Source: Escherichia coli (GTDB lineage Bacteria > Pseudomonadota > Gammaproteobacteria > Enterobacterales > Enterobacteriaceae). From it: a DNA stretch of 64,000 nt. Location of the stretch: assembly GCF_036507355.1 (NCBI RefSeq), contig NZ_AP027877.1; one strand, given 5' to 3'. Shown here piece after piece: positions 5,943 through 17,995 of the stretch. The notes below the pieces were generated by a model, which was given only the letters and a program-made list of their open reading frames with translations, had not been told where the DNA came from and did not search any database. A program made the translations under genes and the position numbers. How positions within the stretch are numbered: position 1 is the stretch's first letter; every line of letters starts with the position of its first letter.

Positions 5943-6271
5943 CTATTTGTTAGTGAATAAAAGGTTGCCTGTAAAATTACAAAAACCTTACGCAGCGTCA
6001 AGCGGAATCGTGTCAATCATTGCGACAAATCAATCCTGTGCCTAAGCATTACGCGACTGACTCGCCTCACTCTTCCTTTGGGCTTGAGACCACATGGGGT
6101 CGGCGCCCCGAATTTTAAAGGGCAATTACGATAAAAATGTGATTTTCATCACGATTTAGGTGCAGCCATTTCGTCGAGATCAAGTTTAGGACAAAATTTT
6201 GCCAGTTGGTGTTAATGTTTTGTTAGAATCAGTCACGTAATGTGAGCACGATTAAAGTGAGATGTGAGCAA

Positions 6272-6999: not shown

Positions 7000-7258
7000 G
7001 TGGTTCATCCCCTTTTTGCCGCGGCTATGAAGGGGATAGCCAACAATGACCCCACGACTCATCTCAATTATCTCGCCATGACCTGGCTAAGTCCCAGTCC
7101 GATCTCTTGCCGTCGCGTTCACACCTGAATGACTTCTCCTGAACTTAAGTCTCAGACCTATTTGGCCGGTAATCCCTCTCGAATTTGCTCTTTTTGCGCC
7201 CCGCCTTCCATCAACCTGTAACAGACCCAGCCATTTTCTGCGTAATTGTGATCTGAGT

Positions 7259-7290
7259 TGTAAAACGCAGATCATTATCTGTGTTTTACA
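7259..7290. repeat. 14 bp inverted repeat (hairpin or operator-like) upstream of ydjL
   Basis: TGTAAAACGCAGAT-CATT-ATCTGTGTTTTACA, one mismatch, about 80 bp upstream of the ydjL start. Confidence 0.5.
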
Positions 7291-7368
7291 GATTTAATGT
7301 TGATCTCAAAAATCATGTGGGTAAGTATGATGGCCATCTAAGCAAAACTAAACACAGAGGATGACGCA

Positions 7369-8445
7369 ATGAAAGCACTGGCTCGGTTTGGCAAGGCCTT
7401 TGGCGGCTACAAGATGATTGATGTCCCACAACCCATGTGTGGCCCGGAAGATGTAATGATTGAAATTAAAGCCGCGGCAATCTGCGGCGCAGACATGAAG
7501 CACTACAATGTCGATAGCGGTTCTGATGAGTTTAACTCTATCCGCGGCCATGAGTTCGCAGGTTGTATTGCGCAGGTTGGTGAAAAAGTCAAAGACTGGA
7601 AAGTGGGGCAACGCGTCGTATCGGATAACAGCGGTCACGTTTGCGGCGTTTGTCCGGCCTGTGAACAAGGTGATTTTCTGTGTTGTACAGAAAAAGTAAA
7701 CCTTGGTCTGGATAATAATACCTGGGGCGGTGGTTTTTCCAAATATTGTCTGGTTCCTGGTGAAATTCTCAAAATTCATCGTCATGCGTTGTGGGAAATC
7801 CCTGATGGTGTTGATTATGAGGACGCAGCCGTACTTGACCCTATCTGTAATGCCTACAAATCCATCGCGCAGCAATCGAAATTCCTCCCTGGTCAGGATG
7901 TAGTCGTCATCGGTACTGGCCCACTTGGGCTGTTCTCCGTACAAATGGCGCGGATTATGGGGGCGGTAAATATCGTCGTCGTTGGTCTACAAGAAGATGT
8001 GGCGGTCCGCTTCCCGGTTGCAAAAGAACTGGGTGCGACGGCAGTAGTAAATGGTTCTACCGAAGATGTGGTGGCGCGCTGCCAGCAAATTTGTGGCAAA
8101 GACAATCTGGGACTGGTGATTGAATGCTCCGGTGCCAATATCGCATTGAAACAAGCCATCGAAATGCTCCGCCCGAACGGGGAAGTGGTACGCGTTGGAA
8201 TGGGCTTCAAACCTCTTGATTTCTCGATTAATGACATTACCGCCTGGAACAAAAGCATCATTGGGCATATGGCCTATGACTCAACCTCATGGCGTAACGC
8301 TATCAGGCTATTAGCCAGCGGCGTTATCAAAGTCAAACCGATGATCACGCATCGTATCGGCCTGTCGCAATGGCGCGAAGGGTTTGATGCGATGGTCGAT
8401 AAAACCGCAATCAAAGTGATCATGACTTACGACTTTGATGAATAA
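7369..8445 (+). CDS. ydjL: Zn-dependent medium-chain dehydrogenase YdjL
   Basis: 358 aa; GHEFAG and Cys-rich structural-zinc motif (CGVCPACEQGDFLCC), Rossmann GTGPLG. Confidence 0.9.
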   Translation: MKALARFGKAFGGYKMIDVPQPMCGPEDVMIEIKAAAICGADMKHYNVDSGSDEFNSIRGHEFAGCIAQVGEKVKDWKVGQRVVSDNSGHVCGVCPACEQGDFLCCTEKVNLGLDNNTWGGGFSKYCLVPGEILKIHRHALWEIPDGVDYEDAAVLDPICNAYKSIAQQSKFLPGQDVVVIGTGPLGLFSVQMARIMGAVNIVVVGLQEDVAVRFPVAKELGATAVVNGSTEDVVARCQQICGKDNLGLVIECSGANIALKQAIEMLRPNGEVVRVGMGFKPLDFSINDITAWNKSIIGHMAYDSTSWRNAIRLLASGVIKVKPMITHRIGLSQWREGFDAMVDKTAIKVIMTYDFDE

Positions 8446-12729: not shown

Positions 12730-13710
12730 ATGAAAAAAATACCTTTAGGCACAACGGATATTACGCTTTCGCGAATGGGGTTGGGGACATGGGCCATTGG
12801 CGGCGGTCCTGCATGGAATGGCGATCTCGATCGGCAAATATGTATTGATACGATTCTTGAAGCCCATCGTTGCGGCATTAATCTGATTGATACTGCACCA
12901 GGATATAACTTTGGCAATAGTGAAGTTATCGTCGGTCAGGCGTTAAAAAAACTGCCCCGTGAACAGGTTGTAGTAGAAACCAAATGCGGCATTGTCTGGG
13001 AACGAAAAGGAAGTTTATTCAACAAAGTTGGCGATCGGCAGTTGTATAAAAACCTTTCCCCGGAATCTATCCGCGAAGAGGTAGAAGCCAGCTTGCAACG
13101 TCTGGGTATTGATTACATCGATATCTACATGACGCACTGGCAGTCGGTGCCGCCATTTTTTACGCCGATCGCTGAAACTGTCACAGTGCTTAATGAGTTA
13201 AAGGCTGAAGGGAAAATTCGCGCTATAGGCGCTGCTAACGTCGATGCTGACCATATCCGCGAGTATCTGCAATATGGTGAACTGGATATTATTCAGGCGA
13301 AATACAGTATCCTCGACCGGGCAATGGAAAACGAACTGCTGCCGCTATGTCGTGATAATGGCATTGTGGTTCAGGTTTATTCCCCGCTAGAGCAGGGATT
13401 GTTGACCGGCACCATCACTCGTGATTACGTTCCGGGCGGCGCTCGGGCAAATAAAGTCTGGTTCCAGCGTGAAAACATGCTGAAAGTGATTGATATGCTT
13501 GAACAGTGGCAGCCACTTTGTGCTCGTTATCAGTGCACAATTCCCACTCTGGCACTGGCGTGGATATTAAAACAGAGTGATTTAATCTCCATTCTTAGTG
13601 GGGCTACTGCACCGGAACAGGTACGCGAAAATGTCGCGGCACTGAATATCAACTTATCGGATGCAGACGCAACATTGATGAGGGAAATGGCAGAGGCCCT
13701 GGAGCGTTAA
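12730..13710 (+). CDS. ydjG: Aldo-keto reductase YdjG
   Basis: 326 aa; aldo-keto reductase family sequence recognised. Confidence 0.9.
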   Translation: MKKIPLGTTDITLSRMGLGTWAIGGGPAWNGDLDRQICIDTILEAHRCGINLIDTAPGYNFGNSEVIVGQALKKLPREQVVVETKCGIVWERKGSLFNKVGDRQLYKNLSPESIREEVEASLQRLGIDYIDIYMTHWQSVPPFFTPIAETVTVLNELKAEGKIRAIGAANVDADHIREYLQYGELDIIQAKYSILDRAMENELLPLCRDNGIVVQVYSPLEQGLLTGTITRDYVPGGARANKVWFQRENMLKVIDMLEQWQPLCARYQCTIPTLALAWILKQSDLISILSGATAPEQVRENVAALNINLSDADATLMREMAEALER

Positions 13711-13846
13711 ATACTCAACACGATTCACCTCTGTTTCTGTGAAAACTGTGATGAAAATCTGTGATTCAAACAGGTTATTTTGAAAGTAAACATCGGTTAT
13801 GCGATAATCGCGCTAATGTGATGTAAAAAGATACAGGGGTGTAATC

Positions 13847-14605
13847 GTGGCGGCAAAAGACAGGATTCAGGCAATTAAGCAAATGGTTGCCAACGATAAA
13901 AAGGTGACAGTCTCAAATTTGAGTGGGATTTTTCAGGTAACCGAAGAAACCATTCGCCGCGATCTTGAGAAGCTGGAAGATGAAGGCTTTTTGACCAGAA
14001 CCTATGGTGGTGCTGTTTTAAATACAGCGATGTTGACGGAGAATATCCATTTTTATAAGCGCGCTTCATCGTTTTATGAAGAGAAGCAGCTTATTGCACG
14101 CAAGGCACTACCCTTTATCGACAATAAAACCACCATGGCAGCCGATTCCAGTAGTACCGTAATGGAATTGCTCAAATTGTTACAGGACCGTAGTGACCTG
14201 ACGTTGCTAACCAACTCGGCGGAAGCGATTCATGTTCTGGCTCAGTCAGAAATTAAAGTCGTTTCAACGGGTGGGGAACTAAACAAAAATACACTTTCAC
14301 TGCAAGGAAGAATTACTAAAGAGATCATCAGCCGCTACCATGTCGATATCATGGTAATGAGTTGTAAAGGTCTTGATATTAACAGCGGCGCGCTGGACTC
14401 TAATGAAGCGGAAGCTGAAATCAAAAAGACAATGATCCGTCAGGCGACAGAAGTTGCGTTATTGGTTGATCACTCTAAGTTTGATCGCAAAGCTTTTGTC
14501 CAGTTAGCTGACTTTAGTCATATTAATTACATAATAACTGATAAATCACCGGGTGCAGAGTGGATAGCATTTTGCAAAGACAATAATATCCAGCTGGTGT
14601 GGTAA
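13847..14605 (+). CDS. ydjF: DeoR-family transcriptional regulator YdjF
   Basis: 252 aa; N-terminal helix-turn-helix (VSNLSGIFQVTEETIRRDLEKLE) and DeoR C-terminal sugar-phosphate sensor domain. Confidence 0.9.
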   Translation: MAAKDRIQAIKQMVANDKKVTVSNLSGIFQVTEETIRRDLEKLEDEGFLTRTYGGAVLNTAMLTENIHFYKRASSFYEEKQLIARKALPFIDNKTTMAADSSSTVMELLKLLQDRSDLTLLTNSAEAIHVLAQSEIKVVSTGGELNKNTLSLQGRITKEIISRYHVDIMVMSCKGLDINSGALDSNEAEAEIKKTMIRQATEVALLVDHSKFDRKAFVQLADFSHINYIITDKSPGAEWIAFCKDNNIQLVW

Positions 14606-14722
14606 TTTAAGCACACGTTGTCAATATTATTTGTTCCTGCGCCTGGAAATAAAATGATGATAAAGATGCGGCAAGTGAATTTGCCGCAATTGCTACCTTT
14701 TTTAGCAAATCCGAGGCACCCA

Positions 14723-16081
14723 ATGGAACAATATGATCAAATTGGCGCAAGACTGGACCGCTTGCCTTTGGCCCGGTTTCATTATCGTATATTTGGTATT
14801 ATAAGCTTTAGTCTGTTATTAACAGGGTTTTTGAGTTACTCCGGTAATGTCGTCTTAGCAAAGCTGGTAAGCAATGGATGGTCAAATAATTTCCTCAATG
14901 CCGCCTTTACCTCGGCATTAATGTTTAGTTATTTCATCGGCTCTCTTACCGGTGGGTTCATCGGTGATTACTTTGGGCGGCGCAGGGCGTTTCGCATAAA
15001 TCTTCTCATCGTCGGTATTGCTGCAACAGGGGCCGCTTTTGTCCCTGATATGTACTGGCTCATCTTCTTTCGCTTCCTGATGGGAACAGGAATGGGGACG
15101 CTGATTATGGTTGGCTATGCCTCATTTACGGAGTTTACCCCCGCGACGGTGCGTGGAAAATGGTCCGCGCGGCTCTCATTTGTTGGTAACTGGTCGCCCA
15201 TGCTGTCTGCGGCGATAGGCGTGGTGGTTATCGCTTTTTTTAGTTGGCGGATAATGTTTCTGCTGGGTGGTATTGGCATACTGTTAGCCTGGTTTCTCTC
15301 AGGTAAATACTTTATCGAGTCGCCACGATGGCTGGCAGGGAAAGGGCAAATCGCAGGTGCAGAATGCCAACTTCGTGAAGTAGAGCAGCAAATTGAAAGA
15401 GAGAAGAGTATTCGTTTACCCCCGCTTACTTCGTATCAGAGCAACAGCAAAGTTAAAGTAATCAAGGGTACTTTCTGGCTCCTGTTTAAAGGTGAAATGT
15501 TACGACGTACATTAGTCGCGATTACTGTTTTAATTGCAATGAACATTTCGCTTTATACCATCACCGTATGGATACCGACCATATTTGTTAACTCCGGCAT
15601 TGATGTCGATAAATCAATATTAATGACCGCTGTTATTATGATTGGCGCTCCGGTAGGAATATTTATTGCGGCATTAATTATTGATCATTTTCCTCGTCGG
15701 TTATTTGGCTCCACCTTACTTATTATTATTGCCGTGTTAGGCTATATCTATTCAATTCAGACTACAGAGTGGGCGATTTTAATCTATGGCCTGGTGATGA
15801 TCTTCTTTTTATACATGTATGTTTGCTTCGCGTCGGCGGTTTATATCCCGGAGCTTTGGCCAACGCATTTACGCCTGCGCGGTTCGGGTTTCGTTAATGC
15901 CGTCGGACGGATCGTCGCAGTCTTCACGCCCTATGGCGTTGCGGCATTATTAACACATTATGGGTCGATCACGGTGTTTATGGTGCTTGGTGTCATGTTA
16001 GTGCTCTGTGCGCTGGTTCTCTCTATTTTTGGCATCGAAACGCGGAAGGTGTCGCTGGAAGAGATTTCTGAGGTGAACTAA
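14723..16081 (+). CDS. ydjE: MFS transporter YdjE
   Basis: 452 aa from ATG 14723 (MEQYDQIGARLDRL), paralogous to ydjK; the ORF-track upstream extension has no support. Confidence 0.88.
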   Translation: MEQYDQIGARLDRLPLARFHYRIFGIISFSLLLTGFLSYSGNVVLAKLVSNGWSNNFLNAAFTSALMFSYFIGSLTGGFIGDYFGRRRAFRINLLIVGIAATGAAFVPDMYWLIFFRFLMGTGMGTLIMVGYASFTEFTPATVRGKWSARLSFVGNWSPMLSAAIGVVVIAFFSWRIMFLLGGIGILLAWFLSGKYFIESPRWLAGKGQIAGAECQLREVEQQIEREKSIRLPPLTSYQSNSKVKVIKGTFWLLFKGEMLRRTLVAITVLIAMNISLYTITVWIPTIFVNSGIDVDKSILMTAVIMIGAPVGIFIAALIIDHFPRRLFGSTLLIIIAVLGYIYSIQTTEWAILIYGLVMIFFLYMYVCFASAVYIPELWPTHLRLRGSGFVNAVGRIVAVFTPYGVAALLTHYGSITVFMVLGVMLVLCALVLSIFGIETRKVSLEEISEVN

Positions 16082-16825: not shown

Positions 16826-17842
16826 TTAATCATCCGGCGTCAGTTCGCCGCGCAGGTTTTGGCTCATGGCCTTGCGAATGGTTTCAGTATCCAGTTCCTG
16901 GCTAAGCAGGTAATGCAGTTTGGTTAGCGTGGCTTCTACAGTCATATCTGCACCGCCAATAACGCCAGCATGGGCGAGGGCGTTACCGGTGGCATAACCA
17001 CCCATATTCACTTTACCGGACATACATTGTGTCAGGTTGACCACCACAATACCGCGATCGCTGGCTTCTTGTAATTCCTGCAGGAAGGCTTTGTTTTGTG
17101 GCGCATTACCCACGCCATAGGAGCGCAGAATCAATGCTTTCACCGGTTGGCGCAGAAAATTGCGCACGACGCCAGCAGAAATCCCTGGATAAATCGTCAC
17201 TACGCCAATTGGTTGTGGGGTGATTGGATGAACGATCAATTCCCCTTCACCGTGCGGGGCGGGTGGCGTATTCAAACGACGAATATGGATACCTGCTTCC
17301 AGTAACGGAGGAAGGTTTGGAGAGGCAAACGCATCAAAACCATCGGCATGGGCTTTGGTAGTGCGGTTGCCGCGATACAATCGGTTATTGAAAAAGAGCG
17401 TTACTTCGTTGATCGGATAATTCGCCGCAACGTACAACGCATTCAGCAGATTAATTTGTCCGTCAGAGCGTAACTCAGCTAGCGGGATTTGTGACCCTGT
17501 CACAATGACTGGTTTACCGAGATTCTCGAGCATGAACGACAGCGCAGAGGCGGTATATGCCATCGTATCGGTGCCGTGCAGAATGACAAAACCATCATAG
17601 TCGTCATAGTGCGCTTTAATATCTTCAGCAATATGCTGCCAGTCTTCCGGCGTCATATCTGAAGAATCCATCAGCGGCGTATATTCATGAATGGTGAAAT
17701 CTGGCATCTCCGGGCGATGGAATTCCGGCATCAGCGCCAGTTGGCGTTGTAGATGACCTGACACCGGTATATAACCCTGCTCGGAACGCTGCATCCCGAT
17801 GGTCCCGCCCGTGTAGGCGACGTAAATTGATTTCTTTTGCAT
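16826..17842 (-). CDS. ansA: Cytoplasmic L-asparaginase I
   Basis: 338 aa from ATG 17842 (MQKKSIYVAYTGGTIGM, the asparaginase threonine motif); ansA stop lies 11 bp upstream of the pncA start. Confidence 0.93.
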   Translation of the reverse strand: MQKKSIYVAYTGGTIGMQRSEQGYIPVSGHLQRQLALMPEFHRPEMPDFTIHEYTPLMDSSDMTPEDWQHIAEDIKAHYDDYDGFVILHGTDTMAYTASALSFMLENLGKPVIVTGSQIPLAELRSDGQINLLNALYVAANYPINEVTLFFNNRLYRGNRTTKAHADGFDAFASPNLPPLLEAGIHIRRLNTPPAPHGEGELIVHPITPQPIGVVTIYPGISAGVVRNFLRQPVKALILRSYGVGNAPQNKAFLQELQEASDRGIVVVNLTQCMSGKVNMGGYATGNALAHAGVIGGADMTVEATLTKLHYLLSQELDTETIRKAMSQNLRGELTPDD

Positions 17843-17995
17843 GATATTGATATGAATGATATCGAAAGAGCAAAAGTATATACGTGAGGCAGGGGGAGCG
17901 CACCTGATACTATGCGGATAAGGAAATATGGGGCGAGACAGCGGGAAGAGGATTAAAAATATGGCCGACGATCTGTCGGCCACTCAGTACAAGAC

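Follow-up and report, generated by a model that had tools for sequence, protein, structure and literature searches.

The spacer between ydjG and ydjF in Escherichia coli probably acts as the control region of an internal σ70 promoter for ydjF, in which three copies of the hexamer CTGTGA belong to different, overlapping signals of different evolutionary age. Both this promoter and a CRP box in the spacer are already published in SELEX tables, and the CTGTGA repeat is in itself ordinary. What would be new is solely an RNA fold predicted to mask the RBS of ydjF. Computationally this helix is well supported; what it does in the cell we infer from the arrangement of its arms relative to the promoter.

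We analysed a 64-kb stretch of E. coli DNA, referred to here as the window, on whose + strand the ydj cluster is arranged in the order ydjL, ydjK, ydjJ, ydjI, ydjH, ydjG, ydjF, ydjE. The ydjG-ydjF spacer measures 136 bp, and BLAST finds the 701 bases around it at 99-100% identity in thousands of RefSeq E. coli chromosomes, with ydjG and ydjF annotated there. The ydjF product contains the HTH_DeoR and DeoRC domains (PF08220 and PF00455) according to Pfam, in agreement with the RefSeq annotation. The genes and repeats needed for what follows are:

7369-8445, + strand: ydjL (ORF list).
12730-13710, + strand: ydjG, an aldo-keto reductase gene, with its stop codon TAA at 13708-13710 (ORF list; RefSeq annotation under the BLAST match).
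13737-13742, + strand: CTGTGA copy 1 (sequence), CTGTGT in most orthologues.
13746-13751, + strand: CTGTGA copy 2 (sequence), present in E. coli proper only; its TGTGA is the well-matching half of the CRP box.
13759-13764, + strand: CTGTGA copy 3 (sequence), conserved from Escherichia to Agarivorans.
13847-14605, + strand: ydjF, a DeoR/GlpR-family regulator gene with a GTG start (ORF list; RefSeq annotation; Pfam).

The region 13400-14100 is carried by 4329 of the 5426 complete E. coli genomes; in one strain, CUPF09, an IS1A is inserted in it, and in strain S-P-C-029.01 both ydjG and ydjF are frameshifted. Outside E. coli, the ydj cluster of Pectobacterium sp. B1J-3 has an extra gene of the ribulose-phosphate 3-epimerase family between ydjL and ydjK (L050:1397-2089).

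An earlier note on this DNA had placed CTGTGA at 13737, 13746 and 13759, preceded by TTCACC, and a check of the sequence confirmed the three copies as well as TTCACC at 13724-13729, all on the + strand. The note had also called the spacer the only sizeable gap in the ydj cluster, which is wrong: the end of ydjF at 14605 and the ATG of the 452-aa ydjE at 14723 are separated by 117 nt. This second spacer (14606-14722) holds a GC-rich hairpin, TGCGGCAAGTGAATTTGCCGCA, at 14667-14688, which is conserved in Citrobacter, Klebsiella and Yokenella and was scored as terminator-like on the minus strand only. Counted over the whole 64-kb window and both strands, CTGTGA occurs 17 times against 24.6 expected in shuffles; the hexamer shows no overall enrichment and is clustered only at the spacer. 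Same-strand triples of any non-trivial hexamer within ≤30 bp were found twice in the 64-kb window, compared with 0.47 ± 0.87 in dinucleotide shuffles. With all hexamers allowed for, the cluster is unusual, and neither overwhelming nor compelling by itself. The other triple in the window consists of TGATAT at 17842, 17848 and 17857 (17842-17862) and lies in or near a minus-strand ORF. We also noted a 10-codon ORF, ATGAAAATCTGTGATTCAAACAGGTTATTTTGA, at 13752-13784, which spans copies 2 and 3 and the −35 hexamer; it has no SD, its ATG is missing in orthologues, and it is probably meaningless.

A promoter scan of the spacer revealed a σ70 promoter for ydjF, TTGAAA-17-GATAAT with an upstream TG, which matches at 10 of 12 positions:

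13780-13785, + strand: −35 hexamer TTGAAA of the ydjF promoter (scan; PMC3946193), conserved in all orthologues.
13800-13808, + strand: extended −10 TGcGATAAT of the ydjF promoter (scan; PMC3946193).
13815-13816, + strand: predicted start of transcription at A13815 or A13816, 7-8 nt downstream of the −10.

The site is identical to the one listed by Shimada et al. in 2014, who used RNAP genomic SELEX and reported TTGAAA-17-GATAAT as a constitutive σ70 ydjF promoter in the ydjG/ydjF spacer (PMC3946193). In alignments, the −35 and the extended −10 are conserved in 27 orthologues. The earlier proposal of an internal ydjF promoter with CRP involvement was thus largely right, and its elements were already in the SELEX tables (PMC3946193, PMC3105977), the CRP evidence being in vitro. 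The predicted start corresponds to approximately 1,852,909-1,852,910 in NC_000913.2. The TSS table of Kim et al. (2012), a single data set covering limited conditions, has no start near 1,852,910; its sole ydjF start is at 1,853,405, inside ydjG and 527 nt upstream, with 2 reads. A terminator scan found no terminator-like site between ydjG and ydjF.

Several other signals have been placed in or near this promoter. Many orthologues contain a further CTGTGA at about −52 from the ydjF start codon, within TGTGAGATACT, where E. coli has TGCGATAAT. We considered this copy as a further operator and rejected it, as it is explained instead by an extended −10 (TGTGnGATACT). A degenerate LexA site, CCCTGTATCTTTTTACATCA (13819-13838; 1852887-1852906), overlaps predicted positions +1 to +24 of the ydjF mRNA, and a re-analysis of LexA ChIP-chip data lists this sequence with ydjF as an 'unconventional' target (PMC3542263). 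Furthermore, a SELEX peak of RNAP with a minor sigma factor lies inside ydjF, upstream of ydjE, at about window position 14355 (K-12 1852370) (PMC5493296), and ydjF was 1.9-fold up in a study of Cpx-pathway induction (PMC2731931).

To judge the age of the three copies, we aligned 22 loci that share the gene order ydjJIHG-F-E and four distant ones, from Agarivorans, Pectobacterium, Enterobacillus and Phytobacter. Across these 26 orthologues YdjF is 69-98% identical, with 71-80% identity in the four distant ones. In the E. coli lineages sampled, O157:H7 and strain 536 among them, none of the three copies varies, while neighbouring positions do. Outside E. coli, copy 3 alone is conserved: it sits in a block, AAATCTGTGATTCA(G/A)ACA, which hardly changes from one orthologue to the next. 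Copy 1 reads CTGTGT in the Escherichia/Citrobacter/Klebsiella group and is replaced by unrelated sequence in more distant orthologues, Intestinirhabdus being the sole orthologue with CTGTGA at this position. At the position of copy 2 the sister clades have TATGA or GATGA, and CTGTGA appears there nowhere outside E. coli proper. Since the orthologues generally lack CTGTGA at the positions of copies 1 and 2, the triple is, on the evidence of these alignments, a recent coincidence of three elements that differ in age rather than an ancestral repeat or operator array.

Copy 2 forms part of a CRP box that has been reported before:

13747-13762, no strand assigned: CRP box TGTGATGAAAATCTGT, published as ACAGATTTTCATCACA (PMC3105977 Table S3); PWM score 8.4 bits; centre 13754.5.

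Using SELEX-chip, Shimada et al. (2011) detected a cAMP-CRP peak in the ydjF/ydjG spacer and assigned it to the box ACAGATTTTCATCACA at 1.85297 Mb (PMC3105977 Table S3), indicating that cAMP-CRP binds the spacer in vitro (PMC3105977). The published sequence is the reverse complement of window positions 13747-13762 (TGTGATGAAAATCTGT) and spans copy 2 together with TCTGT of copy 3. The coordinates agree as well: 1852887-1852906 equals window 13819-13838, which puts the box centre at 1,852,970.5 compared with the published 1.85297 Mb. Of the two halves, the left one, TGTGA, matches at 5/5 positions, whereas the right one, TCTGT, matches TCACA at only 2/5; the earlier note was therefore correct in stating that no properly spaced TCACA partner is present, TCTGT being the best partner available. 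We scored the window with a symmetrised CRP PWM built from the 149 published boxes of the PMC3105977 table with the ydjF box left out. At 13747 the score was 8.4 bits, rank 24 of approximately 64,000 window positions (top 0.04%), a value above the 10th percentile of the 149 training boxes (5.0) and below their median (11.1). Copy 1 scored 2.7 and copy 3 less than 2. The strongest matches in the window were TGTGATTTTCATCACG at 6138-6153 (17.2 bits) and TGTGACCAAACTCAAA at 2225-2240 (13.7 bits), and the matrix in this way recovered the published gapA/msrB box (6138) and mipA/yeaG box (2225).

With the start as predicted from the −10, the centre of the ydjF box at 13754.5 lies at −60.5 or −61.5 from A13815 or A13816, respectively, a class I position; sites of this class are centred near −61.5, −72.5, −82.5 or −92.5. 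Copy 2, apparently having arisen in E. coli proper, would thus combine with TCTGT of copy 3 into a weak class I CRP box at about −61. In the orthologous promoters, no CRP-like site of comparable score was present at the position of the box (5.1 in E. whittamii and 2.6 in E. sp. E1V33), and this lack is compatible with a lineage-specific site. Two other candidate CRP sites were discarded. Copy 3, considered as a conserved site, has a PWM score below 2 and a right half matching at 0/5 positions, and its centre would fall at about −47.5, a non-canonical position for CRP; TGTGATCT upstream of ydjL likewise scores below 2, and ydjL is absent from the CRP SELEX list.

For copy 3, the comparison with the ydjL promoter points to another kind of signal:

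13755-13776, no strand assigned: conserved block AAATCTGTGATTCAAACAGGTT, about 22 bp, abutting the −35; candidate YdjF operator (alignments; −35-anchored comparison).
7277-7305, + strand: ydjL counterpart ATCTGTGTTTTACAGAT, followed by the −35 TTGATC at 7300-7305 (−35-anchored comparison).

At both promoters, ATCTGTG begins exactly 23 nt before the −35 (7277 to 7300 for ydjL, 13757 to 13780 for ydjF), as part of a common element ATCTGTG.TT. When the E. coli sequences upstream of ydjL and ydjF were anchored at their −35 hexamers, 31 of 70 positions were shared (p = 0.002), including a 7-nt run (p = 0.003), and offsets of ±1 to 3 from this anchor gave no signal. Another 5 species keep this register, sharing runs of 5-10 nt, and inspection by eye extends it to Phytobacter, Enterobacillus and Agarivorans. 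Because an unanchored comparison of the two upstream regions was not significant (best 11/14 matches, p ~0.67), we regard the shared element as suggestive, the argument for it being one of register. Cra, for which the minus strand of copy 3 offers TGAATC, and KdgR were also considered as possible factors.

We also compared the upstream regions of ydjL, at first from seven orthologous species and then from four distant ones. They show a conserved TTTGTGATCT, followed by a palindrome, AAATGCAGAT-N4-ATCTGTGTTTTAAAGAT, and the −35 TTGACC. In the window, the ydjL promoter region (7230-7340) consists correspondingly of TTTGTGATCT, the palindrome AAACGCAGAT-CATT-ATCTGTGTTTTACAGAT and the −35 TTGATC. 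The terminator scan flagged this palindrome as a hairpin at 7258-7291; as it is located upstream of the promoter, it is more likely an operator than a terminator. A common factor acting at the ydjL and ydjF promoters is the most economical reading of these sequence data, which are suggestive, and YdjF is the obvious candidate. We found no YdjF binding study in the literature on ydjF, the other ydj genes or the ydj cluster. The ancient block around copy 3 (13755-13776) would most likely be bound by YdjF, resulting in autoregulation of ydjF and co-regulation of ydjL. As CRP and the copy-3 factor would share DNA, they could also compete for it.

These data bear directly on the proposal, made in the earlier note, that the repeats are a direct-repeat operator of the DeoR type. 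In its full form, with all three copies serving as an operator array for YdjF and CRP binding being incidental, we consider it quite unlikely. Some DeoR-family proteins do bind repeated short sites, the gene immediately downstream encodes a protein with HTH_DeoR and DeoRC, the three same-strand copies within 28 bp are fixed in the sampled E. coli lineages, and a distance of 22 bp, approximately two helical turns, separates copy 1 from copy 3. However, the spacings between successive copies are irregular (9 and 13 bp), and almost all of the 26 orthologues keep a 69-98% identical YdjF while lacking copy 2 and having CTGTGT or unrelated sequence in place of copy 1. The ydjL promoter lacks the triple CTGTGA as well; what is conserved there is TGTGATCT and an ATCTG/CAGAT palindrome. 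What survives of the proposal is copy 3 at most, owing to its conserved block and the register with ydjL, where ATCTGTG occurs at the matching distance from the −35.

If copies 1 and 2 are not part of an array, they could be neutral, lineage-specific substitutions, leaving only the promoter and the copy-3 block functional, and the CRP SELEX signal could be weak binding in vitro that has no role in vivo. This is possible, if doubtful in our judgement. Each of the two copies is indeed only 1-2 substitutions away from the sister-clade sequence, chance alone would produce 0.47 hexamer triples per window, the PWM score of the CRP box is modest, and the ydjF peak, one of 277 SELEX peaks at the low cut-off of 4, is not shown among the strong ones. 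On the other hand, the CRP box is centred at a class I position with a PWM rank in the top 0.04% of the window, and even divergent E. coli lineages have identical repeats though neighbouring positions vary. We retain the reading of the three copies as parts of overlapping signals, with copy 3 in the candidate YdjF operator and copy 2 in the CRP box. The signal overlapping copy 1 would act at the level of RNA.

The stretch just before the repeats, TTCACC/TCTGTTTC, is complementary to the RBS of ydjF, which the earlier note had missed. The two arms of the resulting helix are:

13719-13738, + strand: 5′ arm CACGATTCACCTCTGT.TCT (CACGATTCACCTCTGTTTCT) (MFE fold; RNAalifold; duplex test).
13829-13849, + strand: 3′ arm AGA.ACAGGGGTG.AATCGTG (AGATACAGGGGTGTAATCGTG) (fold; duplex), containing the SD at about 13836-13840 and the GTG at 13847-13849.

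The 20-nt 5′ arm is complementary to the SD and GTG of ydjF and overlaps copy 1 by two bases, the last two of the arm being the first two of the copy; copy 1 would thereby mark the 3′ end of the segment pairing with the SD and start codon at the RNA level. In E. coli the helix comprises 19 bp, with a 12-bp core that is almost invariant across species. It is contained in the MFE structure of the E. coli spacer, which has an energy of −45 kcal/mol and a z-score of −4.1, and none of 200 shuffles folded as well. The helix is also the RNAalifold consensus and is present in the MFE structures of all 23 + 4 species (27/27). For the duplex of the RBS with the upstream 65 nt, the computed energy was better than in dinucleotide shuffles in 25 of 27 species (p ≤ 0.004); the exceptions were Pectobacterium (p = 0.022) and Enterobacillus (p = 0.585, not significant). 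Masking would be costly to undo: opening the E. coli RBS requires 7.4 kcal/mol on an mRNA that begins at 13815 versus 18.1-19.6 kcal/mol on read-through RNAs. Over the 27 species the median extra cost on read-through is 10.4 kcal/mol, and it is small in Pectobacterium and Enterobacillus. A search of 13400-14900 against Rfam gave no family match even at E ≤ 1.

Phytobacter, Pectobacterium, Serratia and Symbiopectobacterium have arms of different sequence that remain, in each case, complementary to the species' own RBS, as exemplified by ACGGTGTGTCTTTGTT with AAGCAGAGGCATACCGT in Phytobacter and GTTTACCTCTG with CAGGGGTAAAC in Serratia. Column covariation is thin because the 12-bp core is almost invariant: 98.2% of cells are paired, with only 2 compensatory pairs, and 18 of 500 shuffles score at least as high. 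Beyond the core, species-specific extensions reach the start codon, such as CACGATT/AATCGTG in E. coli and ACGGTGTG/CATACCGT in Phytobacter. Taken alone, this outer extension reached p < 0.05 in no species other than E. coli, Symbiopectobacterium and K. grimontii, and it is thus not universal.

Complementary arms on either side of a promoter could also be a feature of the DNA, and the inverted repeat ACCTCTGTTTC ... GAAACAGAGGT could represent two operators flanking the ydjF promoter, looped by an oligomeric DeoR-type repressor. E. coli DeoR itself represses by looping between distant operators, both arms are almost invariant within the Escherichia/Citrobacter/Klebsiella group, and by eye they resemble the ATCTGTGTTT half-sites of ydjL at 8 of 12 positions. 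Nevertheless, we consider looping unlikely. Each helix contains 1-5 G-U pairs, which make the sense strand the more stable of the two in 25 of 27 species; such a bias would be unexpected for a dyad at the DNA level and argues for RNA. The arms of distant orthologues, which change and stay complementary to their own RBS, and the extensions that reach the start codon in E. coli and Phytobacter also speak against two DNA operators.

If the helix acts as RNA, the position of its arms suggests when it would form. The 5′ arm is located upstream of the −35 (13780) and of the predicted ydjF start, and there is no terminator-like site before ydjF, so only read-through transcripts should carry it. Comparative data and structure prediction together suggest that the RBS of ydjF would be masked on read-through ydjG-ydjF transcripts only. 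On a finely balanced judgement, we consider that the helix would mask the SD and GTG of ydjF on ydjLKJIHG read-through RNA, while transcripts from ydjF's own promoter, which lack the 5′ arm, would be translated. Synthesis of the repressor would in this way be insulated from induction of the operon, in a chromosomal counterpart of the IS10/IS50 arrangement that extends from Escherichia to Agarivorans.

The ydj genes are a poorly understood locus for sugar-acid catabolism. In the mouse gut the ydjL promoter is turned on, and regulation of the locus has been described as uncharacterised (PMC6561318). Our analysis provides a map of the ydjF control region with a SELEX-listed promoter and CRP box, a candidate YdjF operator shared with ydjL and an RNA helix. 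The RNA mechanism, if true, would uncouple repressor synthesis from operon read-through.

The elements of this map have counterparts in known systems. As in the case of sugar catabolic operons with autoregulated repressors of the DeoR/GlpR family (DeoR, GlpR, AgaR, UlaR, SrlR), the regulator gene lies in a catabolic cluster and has its own promoter, and a conserved element appears to be common to this promoter and that of the catabolic operon. The shared ydj element differs in lying upstream of the −35, not over the −10/+1, and the role of YdjF as the protein that binds it is putative. Class I CRP promoters of the lac type, with CRP at −61.5, resemble the ydjF promoter in having TGTGA-N6-TCnnn at about −61 of a σ70 promoter in a sugar-catabolism cluster; the ydjF box, by comparison, has a poor right half-site (TCTGT), is found in E. 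coli proper only, is positioned relative to a predicted start and has been seen bound in vitro. The RNA helix is most reminiscent of the fold-back inhibition of read-through transcripts of the IS10 and IS50 transposase genes, reportedly the work of Davis, Simons and Kleckner in 1985 and of Schulz and Reznikoff in 1991. There, as predicted for ydjF, the 5′ arm precedes the point at which the gene's own transcription begins, and the SD and start codon lie within the 3′ arm, such that only transcripts entering from outside would be masked. In contrast to the insertion sequences, ydjF is a chromosomal regulator gene at the end of a catabolic operon, its predicted helix joins arms approximately 90 nt apart, and its promoter lies within the loop.
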